Part shown: one piece after another, positions 2,271-60,623 of the stretch
Layout of the letters: the number at the start of each line of letters is the position of its first letter
How positions within the stretch are numbered: the first letter of the stretch is position 1
Notes under the pieces: generated by a model
Databases searched by the model: none
Told to the model about the DNA's origin: nothing
Seen by the model: only the letters and a program-made list of their open reading frames with translations
Assembly (NCBI GenBank): GCA_023133515.1
Contig: JAGLWI010000003.1
Span: 12,265 to 76,264 of the forward strand
Reading direction: 5' to 3'
Length of the DNA: 64,000 nt
Source: Candidatus Babeliales bacterium
GTDB lineage: Bacteria > Babelota > Babeliae > Babelales > UASB340
Translations under genes and position numbers: made by a program

Positions 2271-3849
2271 AAAAATTGCAATTATAATTGGTGCTGGTCC
2301 TGCAGGTTTAACTGCGGCATATGAACTTTTAGAGAAAACTGATATTAAACCAATTATTTATGAGCAAGATAGTCAAGTTGGTGGTTTAAGTAGAACCGTT
2401 AATTATAAAGGGAATAGAATAGATATTGGAGGACATAGATTTTTTTCAAAATCAGATAAGATAATTTCTTGGTGGAAAAAAATTTTACCTTTACAAACAG
2501 CCCAATCAAAAGATGATATTATTTTGTCACGAAATATTAAATATGATGGAAAATATCAAAATATAAGTGATCCTGAAAAAGTTGATAATGTAATGCTTAT
2601 AAGAAATAGATTGTCGCGTATATTCTTTTTAAGAAATTTTTTTGATTATCCAATTTCTTTAAGCTTTAACACTTTAAAAAAATTAGGATTTATAAGAATT
2701 CTAAAAATAGGTTTTAGTTATTTTAAAATTATATTTTTCCCTTTTAAAAATGAAAAATCTTTAGAAGATTTTTTTATAAATAGATTTGGAAAAGAACTTT
2801 ATAATACTTTTTTTAAAGATTATACAAAAAAAGTTTGGGGTGTTGAGTGTAGTAAGATTGATGCTTCTTGGGGAGCTCAAAGAATCAAAGGTTTATCTAT
2901 AAGTAAAGCAATTTGTCATTTTTTAAAATCTATTTTTAGTAAAAATAAATCCATTTCTCAAAAAAATATAGAGACAACTCTTATTGGACGTTTTATGTAC
3001 CCTAAATTTGGTCCAGGGCATATGTGGGAACAGGTTGCAAAGTTGATTGAACAAAGAGGAGGAAAAGTTTATTTGGATCACAAAATTGTGGGATTAAAAA
3101 CTGATAAAGATCAAATAACAAATATTTTTGTGGAAAACAAAATTTCTAAAAAGATTTTTAATCGAAATGCAGATTTTTTTTTCTCATCAATGCCTGTAAA
3201 AGATTTAATTGAAGGATGGCAATCTGGTGTTGATAAAGATGTAATGCAGGTTGCACAAGGTCTTGTATACAGGGATTTTATTACTGTAGGGTTACTTTTA
3301 AAAGATCTCCTGGTAAAAAATCAGACAAAAACTAAGACGGTTAATAATATTATTCCAGACAATTGGATTTATATTCAGGAGAGAGATGTTAAAATTGGAA
3401 GATTACAAATATTTAATAATTGGAGCCCTTACATGGTCAAAAACCTAAATAATATTTGGATAGGGCTTGAATATTTTTGTACTCAAGGTGATGAACTTTG
3501 GGAAAAATCAGATAAAGAATTTAAAAGTTTTGCTATAGATGAACTTTGCAAAATAAATTTTATAAAAAAAGAAGATGTACTTGATAGTGTCATTATTCGT
3601 ATGCCTAAAACTTATCCAGCATATTTTGGGACTTATGATAGATTTAATGTTATTAAAAATTTTCTTTTTAAATATGAAAATTTATTCTTGATTGGTAGAA
3701 ACGGAATGCATAGATATAACAATATGGATCATTCAATGCTAACAGCAATGGAGGCTGTAGAAAATATTGTAAATAATATTAAAACAAAAAATAACATTTG
3801 GTCTATTAATGCTCAAGAAGAATATCATGAGGAAAAGGCGAGAAGATAA
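2245..3849 (+). CDS. FAD-dependent oxidoreductase (Rossmann GxGxxG; amine-oxidase/UDP-galactopyranose-mutase-like fold)
   Basis: N-terminus is [21 protein letters not shown]...VGGLSRT. The C-terminus is [25 protein letters not shown]. It is a paralog of 10827..12293. The ATG at 2245 is preferred over the GTG at 2233. Confidence 0.75.
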
Positions 3850-12300: not shown

Positions 12301-13725
12301 ATGAAAGATAATTTTATTTTATTGGTTTTTTCACTACTTTTTATATTTTTTTCTTTTGTTTTATATTTTAGTATTTCATCTATTCCTCCTTATCAAGATA
12401 TAGATTCTAAGGCATATATTTATAATGCAAAAAGAATTTATGATAACAATCTTTTTTCATCAGTAGCTAGCAAAAAAGATGATCCTTATTATGCTTTAGG
12501 ATATGCATTTTTTATTGGCTTGATATACAAATTATTTGGAATAAATAATAATTTTGTTGTTTTTATACAAATTTTATTAGCTTTATTAACAGGTTTTTTA
12601 GTTTTTAGGGCAACCAAATTTTTATTTAATAAAACAATTGCATTAATATCGTTTATATTTTTTTCTTTTAATATTGGTTTTTTGGTTTTTTCTCAATTTA
12701 TTTTGACAGAAATATTATTGACTTTTTTATTAGCATTGTTTTTTGAGCGATTTGCGTATTTTTTAAAAAAAGATAGTATTTCAAGTTTGATTCAATCTGG
12801 GTTGATATTGGGGATTTCTGTAGCAGTAAAACCTGCTGCAATATATTTTATTTTTCCTTTGTTTTTTTTGATTTTATTTATGAACCGAAGCTTTTCGGGC
12901 TTTGTAAACAAAGCCATTTTGTTGAAGTCGGAGGAGAAGTTGTCTAGCGAAGATTTATTTTTAATAAAAAATAAATTGTTTTATAAAATTAAATTAATTT
13001 TTTTTCTTTCTGTTTCTTTTTATCTTCCTATTATTGGTTATATGTTTTTTAATAAAATTAACTTTGATAATTTTAGTGTTGCTCCTTTGGCAAATGAGAA
13101 TCTTTATCTTTATCTTTTCCCAAAAGTTATTGCTTATAAAAATAATACAGATTGGATTATAGAGAAAAGAAAAATTGGTTCACTTTTAACCGGTAGTAAG
13201 TTGAATGAAAAAAGTTGGTCAAAAATAAAAGAAAAATTTTATGAATATTTTAAAAAAGACCCAATTATTTTTTTACAGATTTGGTTAAAGAATGTTTTTA
13301 AGACGTGTGTTGGTCTTTTTACAACAAATCTTAAAGTTTTGATAGAAAGAGATGTAAAAGGTGGAGATATTTCTTTTTTCAAAATGGAAGGAAATTTTTT
13401 TAAAAGAATTTTTGATTATATTACATGTGGTACAAAAAATCCTCTAATAAAAATAGTAGGTGTTTTTGAGGCTATCTGGTCAGTATTACGTTATATTTTA
13501 TGTTTGATTGCTTTATTTTTTTTAGTTTTTAAGAAAAAGTGGTTAACTTTTTTCTTTTTCTTTTTTTATTTATTTTATTTTTCAATGATTACAGGTCACG
13601 ATGGTTGTGCAAGATTTAGAATGATGTTTGAGCCTGTGTTGCTAGTTTTGGCATCATTTGGTTTGTGGGTTATAGTAAGAGCTTATATGAAAACTCAGAT
13701 AATTTTACAACGGCGTTCATCCTGA
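12301..13725 (+). CDS. Divergent GT-C-fold (PMT_2-like) membrane glycosyltransferase
   Basis: 474 aa and multi-TM. It has DIDSKAYIYNAKRI in the first loop and a C-terminal CARFRMMFEPV that echoes ARLRLPIEPF. The last codons and the TGA stop lie inside palindromic repeat copy 1. Confidence 0.65.
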   Translation: MKDNFILLVFSLLFIFFSFVLYFSISSIPPYQDIDSKAYIYNAKRIYDNNLFSSVASKKDDPYYALGYAFFIGLIYKLFGINNNFVVFIQILLALLTGFLVFRATKFLFNKTIALISFIFFSFNIGFLVFSQFILTEILLTFLLALFFERFAYFLKKDSISSLIQSGLILGISVAVKPAAIYFIFPLFFLILFMNRSFSGFVNKAILLKSEEKLSSEDLFLIKNKLFYKIKLIFFLSVSFYLPIIGYMFFNKINFDNFSVAPLANENLYLYLFPKVIAYKNNTDWIIEKRKIGSLLTGSKLNEKSWSKIKEKFYEYFKKDPIIFLQIWLKNVFKTCVGLFTTNLKVLIERDVKGGDISFFKMEGNFFKRIFDYITCGTKNPLIKIVGVFEAIWSVLRYILCLIALFFLVFKKKWLTFFFFFFYLFYFSMITGHDGCARFRMMFEPVLLVLASFGLWVIVRAYMKTQIILQRRSS

Positions 13726-13780
13726 GCTTGTCGAAAGATGAACGTGCGCATGCATCTTTCGACAAGCTCAGGATGAGCGC
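13713..13780. repeat. GC-rich palindromic intergenic element, copy 1 (REP/MITE-like)
   Basis: The arms gcgttcatcctgagcttgtcgaaagatg (13713-13740) and catctttcgacaagctcaggatgagcgc (13753-13780) are reverse complements with 1 mismatch. The spacer is 12 nt (aacgtgcgcatg). Confidence 0.9.
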
Positions 13781-13860: not shown

Positions 13861-14928
13861 ATGTTGGATAGATATTTTATGATTCTTTGTGGTGGTGGGG
13901 GTGAAAGACTTTGGCCACTGAGTCGGAAAAAAAAACCAAAACAGTTTATTAATTTTTTAAATAATTCTTCTCTTTTAGAACAAACTATAAATCGAATAAA
14001 GCCACTTATTCAGTATAAAAAAAATTTAGGAATTATTATTAATAATAATCAATCTGATTTGATTTTAGAATCGGTATTAGAAAAAATAGGTTTTGTATTA
14101 AAAGAACCAGCTTTAAGAAATACTGCGCCAGCGGTTTTATATAGTTGTTTCCATTTAAAAAGTTTGAGTAAAGATGCAGTTGTTGTTTTCCTTCCAGCAG
14201 ATTCTTTTGTAACTGAAAATGAAAAATATTGTCATTATTTGGAAAAAGCAATTAAATATGCTTCTGAAAATGAGAAAATTGTAACTTTGGGTGTTATGCC
14301 AACTTATCCTGCAACTGGATATGGATATATTCAAGCCGGTTTAAAGGATGGAGAAAAAATAATTTGTGGGAATGTTTATGATACTTTTAAATTTCATGAA
14401 AAACCAGATTTGAAACTTGCTGAAGATTATATTCAAAAAGAAGATATGTTTTGGAATATTGCAGTTTTTATATCAAAGGTTTCTGTTTTTTTAAATGAAT
14501 TTGAAAAAAATGCTCCTTTTCTTTTTAATTCAATGAAAAATTTTTTAAATAACGATATTAAATATGAAGATATTAAAAATATTTCAATAGATTATGCAGT
14601 TATGGAAAAGAGTAAAAATGTTGCTGTTTTGCCATGTGATTTTGAATGGAGTGATGTAGGAAATTTGGAAGTTTTTTTGCGATTACAATCTAGATTATCA
14701 GAAAATAAAAATGGAATAAAAATTATAAATGTTGACTCTGAAAATAATTTAGTACATATCACAAAAAAAGAATTAAAAAAAGATAAGGCTGTTATATTTT
14801 TGGGAGTTGAGGATATTTGTTTAGTAGAAGATGATAACGTGATTTTGGTGGCAAAGAGAGGAGATGTAGAAAAAGTTAAAAAAGTTTTAAAAAAATTACG
14901 TGAAGAATCTTTAGATCAATTTCTTTAA
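13861..14928 (+). CDS. manC: Mannose-1-phosphate guanylyltransferase (NTP-transferase domain only)
   Basis: The N-terminal ILCGGGGERLWPLSRKKKPKQF matches the ManC/CpsB signature. It is 355 aa and lies immediately upstream of gmd. Confidence 0.7.
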   Translation: MLDRYFMILCGGGGERLWPLSRKKKPKQFINFLNNSSLLEQTINRIKPLIQYKKNLGIIINNNQSDLILESVLEKIGFVLKEPALRNTAPAVLYSCFHLKSLSKDAVVVFLPADSFVTENEKYCHYLEKAIKYASENEKIVTLGVMPTYPATGYGYIQAGLKDGEKIICGNVYDTFKFHEKPDLKLAEDYIQKEDMFWNIAVFISKVSVFLNEFEKNAPFLFNSMKNFLNNDIKYEDIKNISIDYAVMEKSKNVAVLPCDFEWSDVGNLEVFLRLQSRLSENKNGIKIINVDSENNLVHITKKELKKDKAVIFLGVEDICLVEDDNVILVAKRGDVEKVKKVLKKLREESLDQFL

Positions 14929-14956: not shown

Positions 14957-16048
14957 ATGAAAAAAGCTTTGATTACGGGAATAACTGGTCAGGATGGGTC
15001 CTATTTGGCAGAGTTTTTATTAAAAAAAGGATATCAAGTTCATGGTATAAAACGTCGTTCTTCTAGTTTTAATACTTCTCGAATTGATCATATTTATCAG
15101 GATCGATATAGAATAAATAATAGAAACTTTGTTTTACATTATGGTGATTTAACTGATGCTACAAATTTAATAAGAATTATTCAGGATACTCAGCCAGATG
15201 AAATTTATAATTTAGCTGCGCAAAGTCATGTTCATGTTTCTTTTGAAACTCCAGAATACACAGCAAATTCAGATGCACTTGGAACATTAAGATTGCTTGA
15301 GGCTATCAGGATTTTAAAGCTAACCAAAAAAACCAAATTTTATCAGGCATCAACGAGTGAACTTTATGGAAAAGTTCAGCAGATTCCTCAAAATGAAAGT
15401 ACTCAATTTTATCCACGTTCACCTTATGCGGCAGCAAAACTTTATGCTTATTGGATAACCATTAATTATCGTGAGGCATATAATATTTTTGCTTGTAACG
15501 GTATTTTATTTAATCATGAGTCTGAAAGGCGTGGAGAGACTTTTGTGACAAGAAAAATTACAATAGCAGTTTCGAAAATAAAATATGGATTACAAGAAAA
15601 ACTTTTTTTAGGAAATTTGGATTCAAAAAGAGATTGGGGTTATGCAAAAGAATATGTTGAAGCAATGTGGCTTATGTTGCAACATGAAAAACCTCAGGAT
15701 TATGTTATTGCAACTGGTCAAACTCATACTGTAAGAGAGTTTGTTGAATTGGCATTTAGATTTGTTGGAAAAGAAATAATTTGGCACGGTACAGGTGTTA
15801 ATGAAAAAGGAATTGATAAAAAAACTGAAAAAGTTTTAGTTGAGATTGATCCAATTTATTTTAGACCAACAGAAGTTAATTTGTTGATTGGTGACGCAAG
15901 AAAAGTTAAAAATGATCTTGGTTGGGCTGCAAAAACATCATTTAATGATCTAGTAAAATTGATGGTTGATTATGATTTGAAACAGATTGAAAAAGATTTG
16001 AATTTAAAAATTGTAAAAAAGGTGAAGGGTGAATTTTACAGGATTTAA
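14957..16048 (+). CDS. gmd: GDP-mannose 4,6-dehydratase
   Basis: Motifs are [56 protein letters not shown] and [17 protein letters not shown]. Confidence 0.92.
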
Positions 16049-22088: not shown

Positions 22089-22157
22089 TGCGCTCATCCT
22101 GAGCTTATCGAAGGATAAAAGCGCGCTGCATTCTTCGACAAGCTCAGGATGAGCGCA
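22089..22157. repeat. GC-rich palindromic intergenic element, copy 2; plausible terminator
   Basis: The sequence is tgcgctcatcctgagcttatcgaagga ... tcttcgacaagctcaggatgagcgca. It is followed by a T-run (ttttttgtttttt). Confidence 0.9.
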
Positions 22158-22227: not shown

Positions 22228-23289
22228 ATGAAAAACTATTTTTGGAATAATAAAAATGTTTTTATTACAGGTGCTACAGGTCTTTTAGGGCCGTGGTTAA
22301 TAAAAGATTTATTAGAAAAACAAGCTAATGTTTTTGTTTTAGTACGTGATATTATTCCTTCGTCTTTATTTTTTATAGATGGGCTTGATAAAAAAACAAA
22401 TGTAATTTTTGGGGATCTTTTAGATTTTCAACTTTTACAAAGAGTTTTGAATGAGTTTGATATTGATACGGTTTTTCATTTGGGTGCACAGGCAATTGTG
22501 GGGATTGCAAATAGGTCTCCTTTATCTACTTTTAAATCAAACATAGAAGGAACTTGGAATTTACTTGAGGCTTGTAGACTTTCTCCATGGATTAAAAAAG
22601 TTATTATAGCATCAAGTGATAAAGCATATGGTGAACATGAAAAATTACCTTATAAAGAAAATATTTCACTTCAAGGTAGATTTCCCTATGATGTTTCTAA
22701 AAGTTGTGTTGATTTGATTTCTCAATCTTATTTTCATACTTATAAATTACCAGTATGTGTTACTCGTTGCGGAAATTTTTTTGGTGGAGGAGATTTACAT
22801 TTAAATAGAATTGTACCTGGAACAATAAAAAGTATTTTGTATGGAAAGAATCCTATTATTCGTACAAATGGCCTTTTCGTTCGTGATTATGTTTACGTCA
22901 AAGATGTATCTGATGCTTATATAACTCTTGCTCAAAAAATGGAAAATGACTTCGTTATAGGACAATGTTTTAATTTTAGTACGGATCAACCTTTTAATGT
23001 GATAGAAATTGTTGATTTGATTTTAGATATTATGAAGTGTAATCATTTAAAACCAATTATTCAAAATCAATCTTGTAACGAGATTCCTGAGCAGAATCTT
23101 TGTTCTCAGAAAGCAAAAAATATTTTGGGGTGGGAAGCCAAATTTGGAGTTAAAGTTGGATTACAAGAAACGGTTAAGTGGTATAAAAACTTTTTTGATG
23201 AACAAAAAAATAAAATTTATATTAGTGGTAAAAGCCCTAGATGTGATTTTGGGTATACTTTAGGAAAAGAAAAATTGCGCTCATCCTGA
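22228..23289 (+). CDS. Extended-SDR NAD-dependent sugar 4,6-dehydratase/epimerase (CDP-glucose 4,6-dehydratase by position)
   Basis: Motifs are FWNNKNVFITGATGLLGPWL, SSDKAYG and YDVSKS. It follows rfbF but lacks the classical RPWQHVLEP motif. The terminal RSS-stop comes from repeat copy 3. Confidence 0.5.
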   Translation: MKNYFWNNKNVFITGATGLLGPWLIKDLLEKQANVFVLVRDIIPSSLFFIDGLDKKTNVIFGDLLDFQLLQRVLNEFDIDTVFHLGAQAIVGIANRSPLSTFKSNIEGTWNLLEACRLSPWIKKVIIASSDKAYGEHEKLPYKENISLQGRFPYDVSKSCVDLISQSYFHTYKLPVCVTRCGNFFGGGDLHLNRIVPGTIKSILYGKNPIIRTNGLFVRDYVYVKDVSDAYITLAQKMENDFVIGQCFNFSTDQPFNVIEIVDLILDIMKCNHLKPIIQNQSCNEIPEQNLCSQKAKNILGWEAKFGVKVGLQETVKWYKNFFDEQKNKIYISGKSPRCDFGYTLGKEKLRSS

Positions 23290-23343
23290 GCTTGTCGAAG
23301 GATGAAGCGCACATGCATTCTTCGATAAGCTCAGGATGAGCGC
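23277..23343. repeat. GC-rich palindromic intergenic element, copy 3
   Basis: The sequence is gcgctcatcctgagcttgtcgaaggatg - aagcgcacatg - cattcttcgataagctcaggatgagcgc. It overlaps the last 13 nt of the upstream CDS. Confidence 0.9.
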
Positions 23344-33894: not shown

Positions 33895-33926
33895 CGCTCA
33901 TCCTGAGCTTGTCGAAGGATGAGCGC
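33895..33926. repeat. Collapsed copy (copy 4) of the palindromic element
   Basis: In cgctcatcctgagcttgtcgaaggatgagcgc the left arm runs directly into the right-arm terminus. This forms a 9-bp stem (cgctcatcc/ggatgagcg) with a 13-nt loop. Confidence 0.8.
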
Positions 33927-33945
33927 TATTTTCTGTAGTTTTAAT

Positions 33946-35157
33946 ATGAAAAGTAATAAAAAAAAAATTCTTTATATTCATCATGGAAAAGGGTTAGGAG
34001 GAGCTCCTCTTAGTCTTTTATATCTAATTGAAGGACTTAATAAAAATATATATGATCCTGTTGTTTTATTTTTACATAATTCTGAGGCAATGGATCTTTA
34101 TAAATCTAGAGGGATTAATGTTGAAGGTCCTGTAGATATTTTGGATTTTCCTCATTCTAAAATTAGATGGTATAGATTATATCATCCACATCTTTTTTTT
34201 AAGTCAATTTTTGGGTCGTTAAAAATTTTACATAATGTTGCTGATTTTTGGTATAAAAAAATTAAACCTGATTTGGTTCATCTTAATACAAGCTCATTGA
34301 GTGCTTGGGCTTCGGTTGCTTACAAAAAAAATATTCCTGTTGTGTGGCACATTCGAGAACCATTATCAGATGGATATTTTGGAATTCGCAAAAAACTTAT
34401 AACAAATTTTGTAAAAAAATATTCAACAGTTATTATGCCAATTTGTAAAAATGATTCAAAACCATGGAAGAATAACAAAAAGGTTTGTGTTGTTTATAAT
34501 TCTGTTGATGAAAAAATTTTTGATAAAAATATATTAGTGAAAGATTTTTTGATTGAAAAAAAATTATCAAAATTTGTTCCAAAAATTTTATTTTTAGGGG
34601 GATTATCTAAAGAAAAAGGAACATTGGTTATTTTTGAAATATTTAGAAGATTATTGAATGTTTTACCTCAAGCAAAATTATTGATAGCAGGTTATTTTGA
34701 TTTATCATTAAAAAATGTTTTTAATTTAAAACGTTATTTTCCATCACAACGTTACAAGATTAAAGTTAAAAAAATATTAGGACAGGTAGAAAAATCAGTT
34801 TTATTTTTAGGTTCTGTAAAAAATGTTTCTCAAGTTATTGCTGCAAGTGATGTTATAATCGTTCCTTCGACTGTTGGGCATTTTGCAAGACCAGTTATTG
34901 AAGCCGGTTTTATGTCCAAACCTGTAGTTGTAACTAATCTTTTACCATTAGATGAGCTTGTTATAAATGGTAAAACAGGATTTTTAATTAATAAAAATGA
35001 TTATAAAGTTTGGATTGAAAAATTACATACTTTATTAATCAATAAAAAATTTAATGAAAAAATGGGAGAAAAGGCTTTTGAGTATTGTGTTAACAAATTT
35101 AATGTAGAAGATCAGGTTAAAAAAGTTGAGGATATTTATAAAAATATATTGCTTTAA
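33946..35157 (+). CDS. GT4-family glycosyltransferase
   Basis: The protein starts MKSNKKKILYIHHGKGLGGAP and contains GHFARPVIEAGFMSKPVVVTNLLPLDELVINGKTGF. The in-frame ATG at 33919 lies inside the repeat and is judged spurious. Confidence 0.75.
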   Translation: MKSNKKKILYIHHGKGLGGAPLSLLYLIEGLNKNIYDPVVLFLHNSEAMDLYKSRGINVEGPVDILDFPHSKIRWYRLYHPHLFFKSIFGSLKILHNVADFWYKKIKPDLVHLNTSSLSAWASVAYKKNIPVVWHIREPLSDGYFGIRKKLITNFVKKYSTVIMPICKNDSKPWKNNKKVCVVYNSVDEKIFDKNILVKDFLIEKKLSKFVPKILFLGGLSKEKGTLVIFEIFRRLLNVLPQAKLLIAGYFDLSLKNVFNLKRYFPSQRYKIKVKKILGQVEKSVLFLGSVKNVSQVIAASDVIIVPSTVGHFARPVIEAGFMSKPVVVTNLLPLDELVINGKTGFLINKNDYKVWIEKLHTLLINKKFNEKMGEKAFEYCVNKFNVEDQVKKVEDIYKNILL

Positions 35158-35172
35158 ATTTAATTATTAAAT

Positions 35173-36927
35173 ATGAATTTTATTAAAAAATTAAGTCGAT
35201 TATTATCAAGAAGAGAAAAAAAGATAATAATTTTTTTATTTTTTGTTTCTATTTTTGTTTCTTTAATGGAGACGTTTAGCCTTTCTTTAATTATGTTATT
35301 TGCAACTGTTGCTACTAATTTTAGTAATATTAATAGTAATAAGTATTATCAATATTTTTACTCATTTTTTAGATGTAATCACCATTATCAATTTGTAATG
35401 ATAATGGGGTCTTTTTTAATAGTCTTTTATTTTTTTAGGGGTGGAGTTATAACTTTTTTTTCATATCTTCAAAGTAGATTTTCTCAAAATAGATTTAAGA
35501 GTTTTGCGTTTAGATTTTTTCAAAATTATTTGAATTTTGAATATAAAGATTTTACTTCCAGTCACCCTGCAAAAATAAGTAGAGTTATAACTGGAGATGC
35601 AGCTCAGGTTACTTCTATTATTTCTGCAATGATGATGATTTGTTCAGAATCTTTAACTGTGATTTTTATATATTTTAGCTTATTGTATGTTAATTGGAAA
35701 ATGACTTTTGTTTTAACAGTTCTTTTAAGTGTAAAAGTTTTTTTTATAGTAAAAACATTTTCTAAAAGATTAGAAAACTTAGGAAAAGAGAGCCGTAAAT
35801 TAAGTATAAAGTTAGGCAAAGTTTTTGGAGAATCCTTTAGAAATTTTAAATTGATAAAACTTCTTTCTAATGAAAAACCGATATTAAAAAGTTTTGAGAT
35901 GGCTAGTTGGGGACTTGTAAAAGCAAACATATTAAATGCTGTTTTGCAAAATTTACCAAGAATTATTTTAGAGACTTTGGGTTTTTCTATTTTGATATCA
36001 TTAATAATGTATGTTGTTTACACATATAATGATGCTACTCGAGTTATTCCTATAATTACGATGTATGCATTTGCTTTTTATAGATTTTTGCCATCAATAA
36101 ATAAGATGCTTACTTCTTATAATCAAATAAGGTTTAATAAATCAGCAATTGATGGAATTCAGGAGTTTTTAGTTTATGATTTGGAAGATTTAGGAAATGA
36201 TAATGTTAATTTTACTAAAAATATAGAATTAAAAAACATTTCTTTTAGTTATGATGAAAATAATAAAATATTAAATAAAGTAAATCTTAAAATAACAAAG
36301 GGTCAAAGAACTGCTTTTATTGGTGAAAGTGGGGCAGGAAAAAGTACTATTGCTGATATTATTATGGGACTTTATAGGCCAGAAGAAGGATCAATTTTTA
36401 TTGATGGTAAAAAATTAGATAGAAAAAATTTAAAGGAATGGCGTAAAAAAATAGGATATATTCCTCAACAGATTTATCTTTTTGATGGTACTGTAGCTGA
36501 AAATATTGTTTTTGGTCGTGAGTATAATGAAAATAAAGTTATAGAGGTTTTGAAGAAAGCTAATATTTATGATTTTTTGTTAACTCAAGGTGGAATTTAT
36601 TCAAAAACTGGTGAAAGTGGAATTAAATTGAGTGGTGGTCAGGTACAAAGAATAGCTATAGCGAGAGCTTTATATTCTAATCCACAGGTGTTGGTTTTGG
36701 ATGAGGCTACTTCGGCTCTTGATAATGAAACTGAAACAAAAATTATGAATGAAATTTATAACTTGGAAAGAGATAAAACTTTAATTATTATTGCTCACAG
36801 ATTAAGTACAGTTGAAAGATGTGAAACGATTTATAAAATTGATAGTAAAAAAATTACTTTGGTTGAAGATTTGTATGAATTATATAATAAAAAAAGTGAT
36901 AAAAATATAAAACAAGTACAAGCATGA
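35173..36927 (+). CDS. ABC exporter, fused permease/ATPase (MsbA/PglK-like)
   Basis: It has 6 N-terminal TM segments, Walker A GESGAGKST, signature LSGGQVQRIAIARAL and Walker B LVLDEATSALD. Confidence 0.88.
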   Translation: MNFIKKLSRLLSRREKKIIIFLFFVSIFVSLMETFSLSLIMLFATVATNFSNINSNKYYQYFYSFFRCNHHYQFVMIMGSFLIVFYFFRGGVITFFSYLQSRFSQNRFKSFAFRFFQNYLNFEYKDFTSSHPAKISRVITGDAAQVTSIISAMMMICSESLTVIFIYFSLLYVNWKMTFVLTVLLSVKVFFIVKTFSKRLENLGKESRKLSIKLGKVFGESFRNFKLIKLLSNEKPILKSFEMASWGLVKANILNAVLQNLPRIILETLGFSILISLIMYVVYTYNDATRVIPIITMYAFAFYRFLPSINKMLTSYNQIRFNKSAIDGIQEFLVYDLEDLGNDNVNFTKNIELKNISFSYDENNKILNKVNLKITKGQRTAFIGESGAGKSTIADIIMGLYRPEEGSIFIDGKKLDRKNLKEWRKKIGYIPQQIYLFDGTVAENIVFGREYNENKVIEVLKKANIYDFLLTQGGIYSKTGESGIKLSGGQVQRIAIARALYSNPQVLVLDEATSALDNETETKIMNEIYNLERDKTLIIIAHRLSTVERCETIYKIDSKKITLVEDLYELYNKKSDKNIKQVQA

Positions 36928-36950
36928 TTTTTATTTAGATAGTTTTAAAT

Positions 36951-38132
36951 ATGAATAAATATTCGAAAATTTATGTAGCTGGACATCAAGGTCTTGTAGG
37001 TTCATCAATTTTAAGAGTGTTAGAAAAAAATGGTTTTAAAAATATAATTACAAAATCATTTAATGAACTTGATCTAAGAAATCAAGAATTTACTAATAAA
37101 TTTTTCAAAAAAGAAAAACCAGAATATGTTTTTTTGGCTGCAGCTAAAGTTGGTGGAATACTTGCTAATAATACTTATAAGGCTGAATTTATTTATGATA
37201 ATTTAATGATTTCGGCAAATGTAATTAATTCTGCTTATAAATTTGGTGTAAAAAAACTTATAAATTTAGGTTCCTCTTGTATTTATCCAAAACTTGCACC
37301 TCAACCTTTAAAAGAAGAGTATATTCTTTCTGATTATTTAGAACCAACCAATGAATCTTACGCAATTGCAAAAATATCTGCTATAAAGTTGTGCAGATAT
37401 TATAATGAGCAATATGGTACAAATTTTATATCTGTTATGCCAACAAATCTTTATGGACCTTACGATAATTTTAATTTAGAAACGGCGCATGTTCTTCCTG
37501 CTTTTATAAGAAAGTTTCATTTAGCAAAAATTTTAAGAAATAATGATTTGGAATTATTAAAAAAAGATTTGATAACTTATTCATTTGGTTATGGATTTGA
37601 TGAAATAAACCTTCGCCACGCTCATCCTGCCGTGCACACCGTAGCGTTTTGCGAAGGTTGTGAGTGCCGCACTTTGTGCGGTGTATTGAGTGATGATTCT
37701 GTAATAAAAAAATTACAAAAAATAGGGATTACCGCAGATTATGTAAAATTATGGGGAACAGGTTCTGCTTTTCGTGAATTTTTGTATGTAGATGAGATTG
37801 CTGATGTTCTTTTATTTTTAATGCAAAATTATGATTATAAAGATATAGGAGAGATTATAAATGTTGGTACCGGTCAAGATATACGAATAAAAGATTTAGC
37901 TAAATTGATAAAAAATATAGTTGGTTTTGAAGGTAAAATTGAATTTGATGTTACTAGTCCAGATGGTACTCCTAAAAAATTATTAGATGTATCAAAAATA
38001 AATAAATTAGGTTGGAAACATAAAATTAATTTAGAAGATGGATTGAAAAAAGTTTATTCATGGTATTTGAATAATTTGAATAAAGAAGATGATAAAGATA
38101 AGACAAGGGGTGTTTTTACAATAAGAACTTAA
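36951..38132 (+). CDS. fcl: GDP-L-fucose synthase (GDP-4-keto-6-deoxymannose 3,5-epimerase/4-reductase) with an internal insert
   Basis: Motifs are IYVAGHQGLVGSSI, LAAAKVGGI, LGSSCIYPK, YAIAKI, MPTNLYGP and LWGTGSAFREFLYVDE. At 393 aa it is longer than the ~320-aa classical enzyme. Confidence 0.85.
   Translation: MNKYSKIYVAGHQGLVGSSILRVLEKNGFKNIITKSFNELDLRNQEFTNKFFKKEKPEYVFLAAAKVGGILANNTYKAEFIYDNLMISANVINSAYKFGVKKLINLGSSCIYPKLAPQPLKEEYILSDYLEPTNESYAIAKISAIKLCRYYNEQYGTNFISVMPTNLYGPYDNFNLETAHVLPAFIRKFHLAKILRNNDLELLKKDLITYSFGYGFDEINLRHAHPAVHTVAFCEGCECRTLCGVLSDDSVIKKLQKIGITADYVKLWGTGSAFREFLYVDEIADVLLFLMQNYDYKDIGEIINVGTGQDIRIKDLAKLIKNIVGFEGKIEFDVTSPDGTPKKLLDVSKINKLGWKHKINLEDGLKKVYSWYLNNLNKEDDKDKTRGVFTIRT
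37609..37682. repeat. GC-rich in-frame insert within fcl, related to the palindromic element
   Basis: It shares cgctcatcctg (37618-37628) and ttgcgaagg (37648-37656) with the element arm. It contains the hairpin ccgcac-ttt-gtgcgg (37666-37680) and encodes RHAHPAVHTVAFCEGCECRTLCGV. Confidence 0.6.
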
Positions 38133-38171
38133 AGTAGAAAATTGAAATGCGGTGTTTGTTATGAGTTCTTT

Positions 38172-38215
38172 ATAAAATTTTATATATCTCCGCATAAAAT
38201 TTTATATATCTCCGC
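38172..38215. repeat. 22-bp tandem direct duplication (x2) abutting repeat copy 6
   Basis: ataaaattttatatatctccgc occurs twice (38172-38193 and 38194-38215). The second unit's ccgc forms the first bases of the palindromic element. Confidence 0.85.
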
Positions 38216-38275
38216 TCATCCTGAGCTTGTCGAAGGATGTAGTGTTGTATCCTTCGACAAGCTCAGGATGAGCGC
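38212..38275. repeat. GC-rich palindromic intergenic element, copy 6
   Basis: Arms are cgctcatcctgagcttgtcgaaggat (38213-38238) and atccttcgacaagctcaggatgagcg (38249-38274). They are perfect complements with a 10-nt loop. Confidence 0.9.
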
Positions 38276-40457: not shown

Positions 40458-41164
40458 TTATTTTTTATTGAAAACCAAGCTTTTGCCATTTCTAAATCTT
40501 CATAATTGTCTATATCTATAGCTGATTTCCAATCAATAGGAAAGAAGTTAGTTTGATTTGTATAAAAAGATTCTGATTTTTTGAGACTAGATACATTTGC
40601 AATCCAAATAGCCCCTGTTGGGTAATAAAGAGCTTCCAAATCTTGAGATCTTTTTTTTAAAGCTTCTGGAAAAATGTACTCTGCTTTAAAAGACTTGTTT
40701 ATTTTAAAAGACCACCATGGATTTATCCAACCAGTTTTAAAACAGCTTATTTGAAATTTAGCGTTAGCTTTTACAAAATTATTATATGAATTTATTATAT
40801 CTTCTTTATTCCTAAGTGGACAGTTGGGCATTAATTGAACCACGGTGGTATATTTTTTGTTTAGTAAGATTTCTATTTGTTCAATTGTATATAAAGTTGC
40901 TTGGCTAATTGATGAATGATCATCACAATACTTATCCCTTAAAAATGGAACATAGGCTCCAAAATTTTTAGCGATCTTTGCAATTTCATTATCGTCTGTG
41001 CTGACTAAAACATTATCAAAAATATTTGTTTTTATTGCAGCTTCAATGGTCCATGCAATCATTGGTTTTTCGTAGAAAACAATAATATTTTTTTTGGGAA
41101 TTCTTTTTGATCCACCTCTTGCTGGAATGATTGCTATGTTTTCTTTTTTTACCATACGGTCCAT
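40454..41164 (-). CDS. pseF: CMP-nonulosonic acid synthetase (pseudaminic acid cytidylyltransferase-like)
   Basis: IAIIPARGGSKRIPKKNI is the acylneuraminate cytidylyltransferase motif. It is 236 aa and sits in the pse neighbourhood. Confidence 0.7.
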   Translation of the reverse strand: MDRMVKKENIAIIPARGGSKRIPKKNIIVFYEKPMIAWTIEAAIKTNIFDNVLVSTDDNEIAKIAKNFGAYVPFLRDKYCDDHSSISQATLYTIEQIEILLNKKYTTVVQLMPNCPLRNKEDIINSYNNFVKANAKFQISCFKTGWINPWWSFKINKSFKAEYIFPEALKKRSQDLEALYYPTGAIWIANVSSLKKSESFYTNQTNFFPIDWKSAIDIDNYEDLEMAKAWFSIKNN

Positions 41165-41943
41165 CCTCCATCTACAACTAGATTATGTCCTGTAATATTT
41201 GATGAATTTGTTGATACCAAAAAATCTATTGATCCTATTACTTCATCTTGCTCTAACATTCTTTTTAAAGGACATAATTTTGAGTATTTTTTTATGAAAT
41301 TTTTGTTTGCTCTACCTTTTATTCCACCAAAAGATATTGAATTTACTTGTATGTTTTTATTAGAAAGACGTATTGCTAATTCTTTTGTAAGATGAATTTG
41401 TGCTGCTTTTGATACCCCATATTGAATTGGAGATTCGATTTTAGGATTTTTGTATATGCTAGGGTTTGGAGGAACTATTCCATAAATTGAACTTATGTTT
41501 ATTATGGATTTTAATTTTGAGTTTTTTTGATCTGTGAGTTTTATTGATAGTTCGTATGGAACTATTACATCTAATGTGAATTCTCCTAACCATTCTGGTC
41601 TTCTTGTAAATCCATCAATGTTAACTTTTAGATAGCTTAAACTTCTTGCACAGTTTATTAAATAATTAGGATATAGATTGTTTTTTTCTATGAATTTTAA
41701 AATTATTTCATAAGATTTATTTTTGGTTAGATCAATTGATATTCCTAAAATTTTATTATTTGTAAGCCGAAGCTTTGGCGAAGGCTTATTATAATTTTTG
41801 ATATTAATTTTTTTGATTAATTTTGTTATTTCATCATCGTTTTTTGTTGTAAAAATGACATTGTATTTTTTATAAAAAAAGTGTTCGACAAGCTTGCTTC
41901 CTACTGTTCCTGTTCCACCAGTTATGAGTATTGTTTTATTCAT
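41149..41943 (-). CDS. Short-chain dehydrogenase/reductase (SDR)
   Basis: Motifs are ILITGGTGTVGSKLV, YGVSKAAQIHLTKELA and a C-terminal ITGHNLVVDGGW. Confidence 0.8.
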   Translation of the reverse strand: MNKTILITGGTGTVGSKLVEHFFYKKYNVIFTTKNDDEITKLIKKINIKNYNKPSPKLRLTNNKILGISIDLTKNKSYEIILKFIEKNNLYPNYLINCARSLSYLKVNIDGFTRRPEWLGEFTLDVIVPYELSIKLTDQKNSKLKSIINISSIYGIVPPNPSIYKNPKIESPIQYGVSKAAQIHLTKELAIRLSNKNIQVNSISFGGIKGRANKNFIKKYSKLCPLKRMLEQDEVIGSIDFLVSTNSSNITGHNLVVDGGWTVW

Positions 41944-53812: not shown

Positions 53813-54943
53813 ATGAAGATTGAAACATCGAACACTAAATCCAATGTTATAGATGATATTAAGCTTAATCGTAAGATGCTCATACAACTTTCTCTTATTA
53901 TACCAACACATAATCGAGCGCCATCGCTTAAGCGTGTACTGGATAATATTTTTGATCTTACTTCTCAAGATTATTTTAAAATAAATTTTGAAATAATTGT
54001 AGTTGATAATAACTCAAAAGATGCTACCAAAGATATTGTATTATCATACGGCGACAAAGTAAAATATGTATTCGAAGAAAATACATCTTTTACTAAAGCA
54101 CGGCATACCGGTGCTCATAATGCACAGGGGGAAATTCTAGTATATCTTGATGACGATATATGTATAAAATCGGGCACATTTGAAGAAATAGTACGTATAT
54201 TTTCACAGAATTCAGATTGTGGTGTTGCGGGGGGCAAAATCCTTGCGCACTTTGAACAAACGCCACCTGATTGGGTGACAAAATTGCAAGCGAGTTTTAA
54301 TGGGCTTTCATTATTTAATTTGGGGGATACGGAAAAAAAAGTTCATGCTGTACCGGCTCCTTTAATGGCTATCAGAAAGATTGCTTTTGATGCTGTTGGG
54401 GGTTTTCCGCCTGATACCGTTGGGGTAGAAACAAATAAAGTGCATAAGACTTTTAAAAAATTATATATAGGGCCAGGAGATTACGCTTTTTGTTTACTGT
54501 GCAGAAATGTTGGATATTCTATTATTTATTCTCCTAAAATTGTTATTGAACACATCATTTCTCCTTTTAGACTTACCAAAGAATTTTGGCTTTCTCGCAT
54601 GATTGGTGAAGGACACTGTATAGCTGTTACACAAGCAAATATGAAAGAACTCAAAATTGAAGGAGCTCGGGCTAAAAAAATAAAACGCTTTAATCGTTGG
54701 AAAGAAATCAAACACTTTTTCACAGCAAAATTACAACGCATCAAAGGAATAAGGGATCCTTTGCTTGTTGATGAAATGTGGTTTGAATATTATCGCTCCA
54801 GACGAAGCATGGAATATATTTTAAGCAAGAATCCACATCTTGCTTCTTATCTTTGGCAAATTGGACTGGAAGGAATTCCCGATAAAGATTTTGAAACGGT
54901 CTTGAAAAAATTACCAAAGGCTTACCAAGACCTTGCATTATGA
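53813..54943 (+). CDS. GT2-family glycosyltransferase (GC-elevated)
   Basis: Motifs are LSLIIPTHNRAPSLKRVLDNI, IIVVDNNSKDAT and VYLDDD. AGGAGGA lies upstream of the ATG at 53813. Confidence 0.8.
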   Translation: MKIETSNTKSNVIDDIKLNRKMLIQLSLIIPTHNRAPSLKRVLDNIFDLTSQDYFKINFEIIVVDNNSKDATKDIVLSYGDKVKYVFEENTSFTKARHTGAHNAQGEILVYLDDDICIKSGTFEEIVRIFSQNSDCGVAGGKILAHFEQTPPDWVTKLQASFNGLSLFNLGDTEKKVHAVPAPLMAIRKIAFDAVGGFPPDTVGVETNKVHKTFKKLYIGPGDYAFCLLCRNVGYSIIYSPKIVIEHIISPFRLTKEFWLSRMIGEGHCIAVTQANMKELKIEGARAKKIKRFNRWKEIKHFFTAKLQRIKGIRDPLLVDEMWFEYYRSRRSMEYILSKNPHLASYLWQIGLEGIPDKDFETVLKKLPKAYQDLAL

Positions 54944-55023: not shown

Positions 55024-56112
55024 ATGGACATATTAATTACAGGAGGTGCCGGATTTATTGGCTGTAATGCCGTTCAATATTTTGCATTACAAAAACATAA
55101 AGTTTTTGTAATTGATAATTTGTCTCGCCCAACAGCTCGTATAAATTTGCAATATATGTTTGATAATAATGTTAGTTTTAATTTCACACACATCGATATT
55201 ACTAACAGATCCCTCCTTGAAGATTTTTTTAAAAGACATGCTTTTGATGCAATTATTCACTTAGCAGGACAAGTCGCAGTAACCAGTTCTGTGCAAAATC
55301 CACGTCATGATTTTGATATAAACGCTCACGGTACTTTTAATCTTCTTGAGTGTATACGTTTATATAACCCAAACGCAATTTTTATTAATGCTTCAACCAA
55401 TAAAGTATATGGTAAGCTGACAGATCATGATGTTATTGAAGAAAAAACATGTTATCGCTATCGTGATTATGAGTATAGTGGTGTTACTGAGCAGCAGCCA
55501 CTCGATTTTTACTCACCTTATGGGTGTTCCAAAGGTATTGCTGATCAATATACACTTGATTATGCACGCATATATAATTTAAAAACAGTATCGGTACGGC
55601 AATCATGTATTTATGGCCCACACCAGTTTGGCGTTGAAGATCAAGGCTGGGTAGCCTGGTTTATTATCGCATTTTTGACAAATAAGCCTATAACTATTTA
55701 TGGGAATGGCAAGCAGGTACGAGATGTTTTGTTTGTATCTGATTTAATAAAATTTTACGAGCTTGCGATCAATAATATTAATAAAATAAGTGGCCAGGCT
55801 TTTAATATTGGTGGAGGCAAAACAAACTCACTATCTCTTTTAGAGTTTTTTAATGTGCTTGAAACTATTACAGGCAAAAAGGTTATTTATTCTTTTGATA
55901 CATGGCGACCGGGAGATCAGTTTGTTTTTGTTTCAGATACTTTAAAAGCTGAAAAAATTGTTGAATTTAGGCCACGGATCTCATACAAAGAAGGTATACA
56001 AAAAACGTATAATTGGTTACTCAAAAATTCGGGGCATGTGGTTACATCAAAAATAAAAAATAATAAAAATGATATAAATATGTATCTACATGAGAGTAGA
56101 AAAATCTGTTAG
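55024..56112 (+). CDS. CDP-paratose/CDP-tyvelose 2-epimerase-like extended SDR (GC-elevated)
   Basis: Motifs are MDILITGGAGFIGCNAV, IDNLSRPTARINLQYM, STNKVYG, DFYSPYGCSKGIADQYTLDYARIY, DQGWVAWF, GNGKQVRDVL and NIGGGKTNSLSLLEF. Confidence 0.7.
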   Translation: MDILITGGAGFIGCNAVQYFALQKHKVFVIDNLSRPTARINLQYMFDNNVSFNFTHIDITNRSLLEDFFKRHAFDAIIHLAGQVAVTSSVQNPRHDFDINAHGTFNLLECIRLYNPNAIFINASTNKVYGKLTDHDVIEEKTCYRYRDYEYSGVTEQQPLDFYSPYGCSKGIADQYTLDYARIYNLKTVSVRQSCIYGPHQFGVEDQGWVAWFIIAFLTNKPITIYGNGKQVRDVLFVSDLIKFYELAINNINKISGQAFNIGGGKTNSLSLLEFFNVLETITGKKVIYSFDTWRPGDQFVFVSDTLKAEKIVEFRPRISYKEGIQKTYNWLLKNSGHVVTSKIKNNKNDINMYLHESRKIC

Positions 56113-59738: not shown

Positions 59739-60623
59739 ATGAGTAATTTTAAAAATTCAAATCCAAAAATAATTGCTGAGATTGGTTGCAACCATAAAGG
59801 GGATATGGAAATAGCAAAAGAAATGATTGTTACTGCTGCAACATTTTGCAAAGTAGATACTGTTAAATTTCAGAAAAGAACAAATTCTGAGCTTTTAACA
59901 AAAGATCAATATAATGCGCCTCATATAAATTCTTATAATTCATATGGTAAAACATATGGTAAACATAGGGAGTTCTTAGAGTTTACGGTAGATCAACATC
60001 GTCAATTGAAAGAGTATTGTGAAGAATTTGGAGTAACTTATAGTACTTCAGTTTGGGACTTGACCGCAGCAAAAGAAATTACATCTTTGCAGCCTAAAAT
60101 GATTAAAATTCCTTCAGCATCAAATCTTAACTGGAAAATGCTGGATTACTTAATTAATCATTTTGCAGGGGAAATACATGTTTCAACCGGAATGACTAGT
60201 AAAAAAGAAATAGATGAAATTGTATCTTTTTTTGATAAAGCCCATCGTATACAAGATGTAATTATTTACGCTTGTACTTCGGGATATCCTGTTGCCTTTG
60301 AAGATATATGTCTTTATGAAATAACTTATCTAAAAGAAAAATATGATTCAAAGGTAAAAGGAGTTGGTTTTTCTGGGCATCATTTAGGAATTGCAGCTGA
60401 TATTGCGGCAATGACACTTGGAGCCGAATGGGTGGAAAGGCATTTTACTCTTGATAGAACATGGAAGGGAACCGATCATGCTGCGTCATTAGAGCCAGGT
60501 GGTATAAGAAAACTTGCAAGAGATTTAAGAAGTGTGCACAAATCTTTACGATATAAGTCCACAGATTTGCTTGAGGTAGAAATTCCTCAACGTAAAAAAT
60601 TAAAATGGATAGCTCAAGTTTGA
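59739..60623 (+). CDS. NeuB-family (N-acetylneuraminate synthase-like) protein lacking the C-terminal SAF domain
   Basis: Motifs are IIAEIGCNHKGDMEIAKEMI, KIPSASN, GFSGHHLG and VERHFTLDR. It is only 294 aa. Confidence 0.7.
   Translation: MSNFKNSNPKIIAEIGCNHKGDMEIAKEMIVTAATFCKVDTVKFQKRTNSELLTKDQYNAPHINSYNSYGKTYGKHREFLEFTVDQHRQLKEYCEEFGVTYSTSVWDLTAAKEITSLQPKMIKIPSASNLNWKMLDYLINHFAGEIHVSTGMTSKKEIDEIVSFFDKAHRIQDVIIYACTSGYPVAFEDICLYEITYLKEKYDSKVKGVGFSGHHLGIAADIAAMTLGAEWVERHFTLDRTWKGTDHAASLEPGGIRKLARDLRSVHKSLRYKSTDLLEVEIPQRKKLKWIAQV

Follow-up and report, generated by a model that had tools for sequence, protein, structure and literature searches.

A GC-rich patch of 75-81 nt lies in frame within a gene of the GDP-L-fucose synthase (Fcl) family in a 64,000-nt stretch of DNA from a Candidatus Babeliales bacterium (contig JAGLWI010000003.1, positions 12,265 to 76,264; hereafter the window, in whose coordinates positions are given unless another locus is named). 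The patch leaves the reading frame open, has no counterpart in the aligned orthologs, falls in a loop between two conserved blocks and is palindromic in structure, folding into a 9+5 bp hairpin and a 7 bp hairpin. Its descent from the family of GC-rich palindromic repeats found in the same window, with arm CGCTCATCCTGAGCTTGTCGAAGGAT, is likely, though short of proven, and on balance we favour regarding it as a decayed and rearranged relic of that repeat, surviving in the gene as a passenger.

The insert and its host enzyme

The minimal insert, as delimited by ortholog alignment, consists of 25 in-frame codons on the plus strand (RHAHPAVHTVAFCEGCECRTLCGVL; 37614..37688, 75 nt, GC 0.587). The inserted DNA probably begins at 37608, because the codons just before these 25, AAC and CTT, are seldom used in the genome (joint P=0.016) and because AACCTT pairs with AAGGTT in the larger hairpin, where it supplies 6 of the 9 bp of one stem; on these grounds of codon rarity and hairpin pairing, the probable full insert measures 81 nt (37608..37688, plus strand, GC 0.568). 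An earlier note on this DNA, made from the sequence alone, had described a GC-rich in-frame patch at this place, and its description is borne out, with the boundaries now refined: in 60-nt windows GC peaks at 0.58 at 37620-37679, against approximately 0.2-0.3 in the flanks, and the open reading frame (ORF) runs unbroken through the patch (..DEINL-RHAHPAVHTVAFCEGCECRTLCGVL-SDDSVIKKL..), flanked by the conserved blocks HVLPAFIRKFH and LWGTG. The region at approximately 37600-37690 is the strongest GC island of a window that averages 25.8% GC, reaching 0.65 in 40-nt windows, and the contrast is equally sharp within the gene itself (58.7% in the patch vs 25.4% in the remainder). At the DNA level the flanks read ...GAAATA(AACCTT) on the 5' side and AGTGATGAT... 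on the 3' side. The predicted peptide of the insert region, which includes the stretch HAHPAVHTVAFCEGCECR, carries 3 His and 4 Cys in the 25 residues of the insert, arranged as His-x-His...Cys-x2-Cys-x-Cys-x3-Cys.

The 25 extra residues are without counterpart in all of the aligned orthologs (25/25; 59-67% BLASTP identity). Loop length was counted in the 109 homologs, out of the best 120, whose FH and WGxG motifs could both be located: the stretch from FH to WGxG is 54 aa long in 81 of them vs 77 aa here, a net gain of 23 residues over the usual 54-aa module, and the 81-nt insert probably took the place of a few native codons. The two syntenic orthologs, L128 and L126, which are the closest ones and have an ABC transporter gene upstream and a PseB-like gene downstream, are AT-rich at the site (for example, GAT TCA AAA ATT AAT TTT AAA AAT ATA AAT TCA) and, as read from their aligned DNA, carry empty sites. 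A homologous Cys/His-rich segment, which the earlier note had named as the observation that would speak against an inserted element, was absent from all the aligned orthologs and from 1.84e9 representative proteins, among which a phmmer search with a 33-residue segment returned no match at E<=0.001.

The host gene (36951..38132, plus strand) is a 393-aa ORF of the GDP-L-fucose synthase family (GDP-4-keto-6-deoxy-sugar epimerase/reductase), long-loop subfamily. Its product is an Fcl-family protein, with the extended short-chain dehydrogenase/reductase fold and the catalytic Ser/Tyr/Lys: it matches Pfam Epimerase (1.4e-58) and, in the PDB, 7anh (3.5e-108) and E. coli Fcl (~1e-97), the top Foldseek matches are 7anh, 8ewu, 7m13 and 1gfs, and S108/S109, Y137, K141 and the N-terminal GxxGxxG (GHQGLVGS) are invariant across the ortholog alignment. 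The NCBIfam model GDPFucSynFcl (NF047922) scores 438.8 bits, below its 500-bit equivalog cutoff, the long loop splitting the match. This has a practical side, as the insert drops the protein under the cutoff, and its Cys/His 'motif' could pass for a functional site. Among named Fcl homologs, the best matches belong to metagenome-assembled genomes (MAGs) of Candidatus Dependentiae. 'Fcl' is best read here as a family-level label deduced from sequence, the exact substrate being uncertain because the nearest solved long-loop relatives are the Campylobacter jejuni GDP-heptose C4 reductases (7anh DdhaC, 8ewu, 7m13, 7cxt, 7anc) and not the classical Fcl. The window also encodes ManC (13861-14928) and Gmd (14957-16048); a GDP-fucose pathway therefore fits, and the pathway appears intact.

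In the AlphaFold2 model of the host protein (mean predicted local distance difference test, pLDDT, 74.6; predicted template modelling score 0.75), residues 222-245 have pLDDT <50 and form a coil joining helices 200-209 and 248-257 of a helical add-on subdomain that is wholly missing from E. coli Fcl. Since the coil is of low pLDDT and the catalytic and cofactor positions are invariant, the model places the insert in a plausible, tolerant surface loop, length-variable and predicted to be disordered, of an otherwise intact enzyme, in agreement with the surface position that the earlier note had supposed.

The DNA of the patch is itself structured. Hairpin 1 (37608..37660, plus strand), AACCTTCGC(c)ACGCT ... 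AGCGT(ttt)GCGAAGGTT, has a folding energy of -20.6 kcal/mol (z=-4.29; 0/200 shuffles) and is both stronger and larger than the hairpin that the earlier note had picked out, having escaped that note altogether. The latter, reported as ccgcac-ttt-gtgcgg, was found again as hairpin 2 (37666..37682, plus strand; GCCGCAC-ttt-GTGCGGT; -10.8 kcal/mol, z=-2.2), for which the canonical repeat arm does not account.

Relationship to the palindromic repeat family

The canonical repeat occurs in five copies in the 64 kb, namely four long palindromes (13713..13780, 22090..22156, 23277..23343 and 38213..38274) and one short single-hairpin form at 33895..33925, which corresponds to the 31-nt unit CGCTCATCCT-GAGCTTGTCGA-AGGATGAGCG. 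The copy nearest to the patch, at 38213, begins 81 nt past the fcl stop codon and 525 nt downstream of the patch, and has two perfect 26-nt arms (-51.9 kcal/mol, z=-10.8).

Under gap-tolerant alignment, the block at 37619..37666 (plus strand) is collinear with the 31-nt hairpin unit according to the scheme CGCTCATCCTG[+13]AGC[+3]TTG[-1]CGAAGG(A>T)[+2]TGAG(C>T)G. It opens with the exact 11-mer CGCTCATCCTG (37619..37629, plus strand), common to all canonical arms as the earlier note had pointed out for the intergenic element, and continues with a 13-nt segment, CCGTGCACACCGT (37630..37642, plus strand), which the gap-tolerant alignments treat as an insertion relative to the arm and which matches nothing elsewhere. 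Identities to the unit amount to 25/31 in the scored alignment, which leaves the 2-nt gap unused, and to 28/31 when the alignment is made by hand. The gap-tolerant score was equalled by 0-3/3000 dinucleotide shuffles (p<=0.001) and by 11/6000 real GC-matched windows of other genomes (p ~0.002). Further likenesses concern structure and frame: hairpin 1 has a stem, AACCTTCGCCA/TGCGAAGGTT, similar to the inner stem of the canonical element, ATCCTTCGACA/TGTCGAAGGAT, with a change on both sides, and the arm part of the patch shares its stop-free frame with the canonical arm (AHP..EG vs AHPELVEG). Other genomes carry the repeat family in the form of lone arms, of short hairpin units and of scrambled variants. 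The stability of hairpin 1 and the likeness of its stem, the common frame and the existence of scrambled family variants all lend support to descent from the repeat.

Several results weigh against this descent. The p-values of the gap-tolerant comparison are optimistic, because the gap penalties were set after the alignment had been seen. With an nhmmer profile of nine arms the patch obtained only E=0.7 and ranked under a site at 41884-41894, where a stretch of the repeat arm, the 11-mer TTCGACAAGCT, recurs exactly inside a short-chain dehydrogenase gene (41149-41943, minus strand). This second match is plainly due to chance, because it falls within the native Rossmann GxxGxxG motif of the dehydrogenase (ITGGTGTVGSKLVEH; GGTGTVGSKLVEH), and an 11-mer identity to the repeat is consequently not diagnostic. 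Ungapped local alignment of the patch against four copies gave a weak p ~0.025, and coverage of the patch by k-mers of the repeat was not above that of shuffles (p ~0.07-0.4, depending on k). The 11-mer that the earlier note had offered as a sign of repeat origin is thus real but, taken alone, not significant, and the second string it had listed as shared with the arm, ttgcgaagg (TTGCGAAGG), does not hold in full, as the arm reads TTGTCGAAGG and only CGAAGG is exact. The patch contains no second (reverse) arm; no form intermediate between the canonical repeat and the patch was found; no source was identified for the tail of approximately 28 nt with hairpin 2, nor for the 13-nt internal segment; and inspection of the sequence around 37608-37688 revealed no flanking direct repeat that might represent a target-site duplication. 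A search for canonical-arm peptides inside database proteins yielded no candidate, which indicates that the repeat family is not a habitual in-frame inserter. Homology of the patch to the repeat is therefore best described as credible only under the gap-tolerant collinear alignment.

A pair of TGAGTG motifs (37661 and 37687) was considered as a target-site duplication of hairpin 2 and rejected, because the pair encloses 26 nt, which is not a multiple of three and would have thrown the gene out of frame.

A variant arm is fused to the fcl gene of one of the syntenic orthologs (L126, 1320-1400), whose ORF is lengthened by it at the 3' end (..ALRMSGMCDK). This arm reads ATCCTTCGA[+21 nt, containing CTGCGCAAAGCACAG]CTCAGGATGAGCG and is alike in architecture to the patch, both being an arm with an internal insertion of approximately 21 nt. 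Homology between the two insertions was rejected (~6/22 identities by eye), the similarity being one of architecture alone. The intergenic region that follows fcl in the same locus (1400-1600) holds dense nested GC-rich palindromes of other kinds.

Copies of the canonical repeat in the window are either intergenic or overlap the ends of ORFs by 7-13 nt. The ORFs 12301-13725 and 22228-23289 enter canonical copies and terminate at the TGA within CCTGAGC, and the glycosyltransferase ORF 33919-35157, in its longest form, starts at an ATG within the short-form repeat (AGGATGAGCG); copies of the repeat thus contribute start or stop codons where genes begin or end. Two independent Logan contigs (L003, window 33897-38242; L004, window 36858-38242) cross the fcl patch and stop inside canonical copies (at 33897 and 38242). 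That contigs break at the canonical repeats, and not at the patch, is consistent with many copies of the repeat and one of the patch. Adjoining the copy at 38213 there is a perfect tandem duplication of 22 nt (ATAAAATTTTATATATCTCCGC x2; 38172-38215), whose second copy covers the first three bases of the repeat and which may be a footprint of slippage or of insertion.

Beyond the source genome, the 26-nt arm CGCTCATCCTGAGCTT[G/A]TCGAA[G/A][G/A]AT was matched exactly in more than 119 reference-genome stretches from distant phyla, cultured isolates included. The arm-bearing taxa among the matches listed comprise Dehalococcoidia, Acidobacteriota, Novosphingobium and other sphingomonads, Luteimonas, Elusimicrobia, Planctomycetota and Dependentiae. 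In these genomes the arm often stands singly, as the 31-nt hairpin unit, or partnered by a diverged arm, CATGGTTCGACAGGCTCACCATGAGCGG; in the diverged-arm pairs, the triplets TCC/GGA vs TGG/CCA appear to co-vary. Rfam contains no family for the canonical repeat, and nothing relevant emerged from literature string searches with the repeat DNA and its peptide translations or from the literature on Dependentiae combined with palindromic repeats. With its 26-mer unchanged from Dehalococcoidia to Novosphingobium to Dependentiae, the repeat family is probably of greater interest than the patch itself.

Proposed origin and rival explanations

If the patch is a relic of the repeat, as we are inclined to believe, the starting material would most likely have been a single hairpin unit (arm) from the CGCTCATCCTGAGCTTGTCGAAGGAT family, which may have entered the gene by transposition or by repair or template-switch copying from a nearby copy, such as the nearest one downstream of fcl. 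It would have landed in DNA encoding the solvent-exposed, length-variable loop of the helical add-on subdomain, replacing approximately 2-4 native codons. Survival of the patch would be explained because its net length is a multiple of three and because it is read in the arm's only frame free of stops (AHP..EG); in a gene whose pathway is intact, an insertion could have persisted only if it kept the frame, brought in no stop codon and fell in a tolerant loop. The insert would then be translated as a disordered loop of 25-27 residues, rich in Cys and His because of the codons offered by GC-rich palindromic DNA (TGC, CAC, GTG; GTGCAC). Later decay, in the absence of pressure for the canonical form, may have contributed the additions of 13, 3 and 2 nt, the loss of the second arm and the gain of the small hairpin, and the mRNA of the patch would be expected to form two stable hairpins.

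It is rather unlikely, in our estimation, that the patch is instead unrelated filler DNA, namely a GC-rich foreign or genomic fragment caught in break repair, whose likeness to the repeat is coincidental. The poor nhmmer score, the non-significant k-mer test and the chance 11-mer elsewhere in the window are all as this explanation would have them, as is the uniqueness of the patch, which Logan contigs cross yet break at the canonical repeats. The three-block collinear match to the 31-nt unit, at p ~0.002 against real GC-matched DNA, argues for kinship with the repeat instead, as does a hairpin 1 stem like the canonical inner stem. Nor did plasmids, phages, Rfam or protein space yield a donor: the patch, translated in six frames, matched nothing among 5.8e9 proteins, BLAST of the patch against plasmids and phages gave chance-level matches only (E>=0.2), and neither Rfam, applied to the patch, nor ARAGORN, applied to the window, reported anything on the patch, which rules out an origin from a tRNA, an rRNA or a known RNA family. 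Equally, a scan of JGI metagenomes for ACGCTCATCCTG-N16-28-TTGCGAAGGT returned 0 matches, blastn of the patch against 0.9 Mb of retrieved loci recovered only an 11-13-mer, and the window, the 0.9 Mb of loci and the collections of proteins and DNA that were searched yielded no second copy of the patch. A variant of the filler explanation takes hairpin 2 to be a scrap of a tyrosine recombinase gene (minus strand, TPHKVRHS), on account of its 20-mer GAGTGCCGCACTTTGTGCGG, which had one match in the JGI metagenomes (L127, 1879-1898; contig SDBT01005563.1), where it provides the codons for PHKVRHS in the conserved LTPHKVRHSFATHLL (LTPHKVRHSFATH) box of such a gene. We judged this match to be at chance level and rejected the candidate, since the similarity ends exactly at the 21-nt match, one 20-mer match is approximately what chance would give for a collection of that size, and the window holds no recombinase gene.

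Explanations other than chance filler or a repeat relic appear weaker still. A functional role for the loop, whose His/Cys segment would be a metal-binding, redox or regulatory module under selection, is suggested by the 3 His and 4 Cys per 25 residues in an intact ORF with its pathway genes present; we hold it to be improbable, given that the segment is modelled at pLDDT <50, that its residue bias follows directly from GC-rich palindromic DNA and that the extra sequence at the same site in other orthologs differs in composition. Conservation of the segment cannot be shown, because it has no homolog in the 1.84e9 representative proteins. An artefact or a dead gene, be it a chimera, a sequencing error or a pseudogene with a luckily open frame, deserves consideration insofar as all the data come from MAG or metagenome assemblies, apparently of one project. 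The fcl gene including the patch is nonetheless base-identical over its whole length in four assemblies produced by different pipelines (the NCBI MAG GCA_030631185.1, an ENA assembly and two Logan run assemblies), so the patch is not an assembly artefact, while a pseudogene is hard to reconcile with catalytic and cofactor residues that are invariant and all kept and with an insert that is an exact multiple of three and stop-free; this explanation as a whole is very improbable. Least credible of all, to the point of being barely worth entertaining, is the notion that the mature protein lacks the segment because the patch acts as an intervening sequence, for example a mini-intron, an intein or a translational hop, and is taken out or skipped. 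Two stable hairpins within a coding region might invite this idea, but no Rfam intron or ribozyme matched, 25 aa is far below the size of an intein, and no bypass is needed because the frame is open. The relic of the palindromic repeat thus remains the explanation that we prefer.

Comparison with known systems and the loop as an insertion site

Rickettsia palindromic elements (RPEs) are sequences of ~150 bp described in Rickettsia, where ten families, each with a conserved peptide, are inserted in many genes (PMC10969869, section 4.2). The patch is like them in that palindromic repeat-like DNA lies in frame in an unrelated metabolic gene, adding a peptide where the fold permits; it differs in being 75-81 nt long, in being a single degenerate copy with a non-recurring peptide, and in its host, a 26% GC uncultured bacterium with its best named Fcl homologs in Candidatus Dependentiae. 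The parallel with RPEs that the earlier note had drawn can hence be retained for behaviour (in frame, palindromic) and not for family membership: by analogy the patch may be said to behave like an RPE, while length and copy number, as described for these elements, set it apart from their families.

With the canonical repeat of its own genome the patch has in common the 11-mer, the collinear 31-nt unit alignment, the GC richness, the palindromic character and the same stop-free frame (AHP..EG). The canonical repeat, in contrast, has two near-perfect arms of 26-28 nt, is multi-copy and lies in intergenic or gene-end positions, whereas the patch combines one interrupted arm with the unrelated sequence of a hairpin, lies mid-gene and is unique. 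In-frame ORF fusions also occur among repetitive extragenic palindromic (REP) sequences and bacterial interspersed mosaic elements (BIMEs) and among MITEs (miniature transposable elements with inverted repeats), such as ERIC, BOX and QMITE1 (PMC10969869). These are comparable in being short, non-autonomous and structured elements, mostly extragenic, with occasional in-frame fusions; unlike MITEs, the patch has flanks in which, by eye, terminal inverted repeats with a target-site duplication are absent. REP/RAYT systems are further marked by a RAYT (Y1 transposase) gene and a conserved 5' tetranucleotide of the REP; for the patch no transposase associated with it was identified, though no screen of the window for such genes was made. 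As regards the protein, the region from FH to WGxG is an add-on that varies in length across the long-loop Fcl and GDP-heptose C4-reductase enzymes (7anh, 8ewu, 7m13, 7cxt, 7anc), and the variation here is of the same kind; most members of the subfamily, however, have a conserved 54-aa module, whereas this protein has 23 net residues of foreign composition.

Extra residues at the same position, which the earlier note had ascribed to longer Fcl variants of other bacteria, were indeed encountered in several orthologs, in the form of unrelated sequence. P0116 (L124, 682-750) has a palindrome in the same loop, with 28-nt arms GTCATTCCCACGCAAGTGGGAATCCAGA / TCTGGATTCCAGTTTTCACGGGAATGAC, translated as VIPTQVGIQ..SSFHGNDG; P0106 (L125, ~3645-3720) has a GC-rich segment with direct repeats SPSYEGQAGGYEGQ; and, at the level of protein only, P0115 carries a shorter insert, LPFKGRDRVGMG, and P0104 carries Ser-rich extra segments. 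The Fcl loop seems to be repeatedly tolerant of foreign DNA. The stronger proposition, that the loop between FH and WGxG is a recurrent 'safe harbour' colonised independently by unrelated repeats in different lineages (the patch, P0116, P0106 and P0115), is unlikely. An in-frame insert of repeat origin, as the one in Fcl probably is, represents a kind of event that is uncommon yet already known.

The survival of selfish or structured repeat DNA in frame within enzymes is one route to new loops, and it has been documented mainly in Rickettsia; the present case points to the same outcome from a different repeat in an AT-rich uncultured bacterium. Should the insert be translated and alter the enzyme, for instance through metal binding by its Cys and His residues, it would represent repeat-driven protein innovation outside Rickettsia. 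Elsewhere in the window, several longer stretches, none of them near the repeat copies, attain a GC content of 55-57% (40-nt windows), at approximately 54090-54437, 55264-55670 and 60386-60508.

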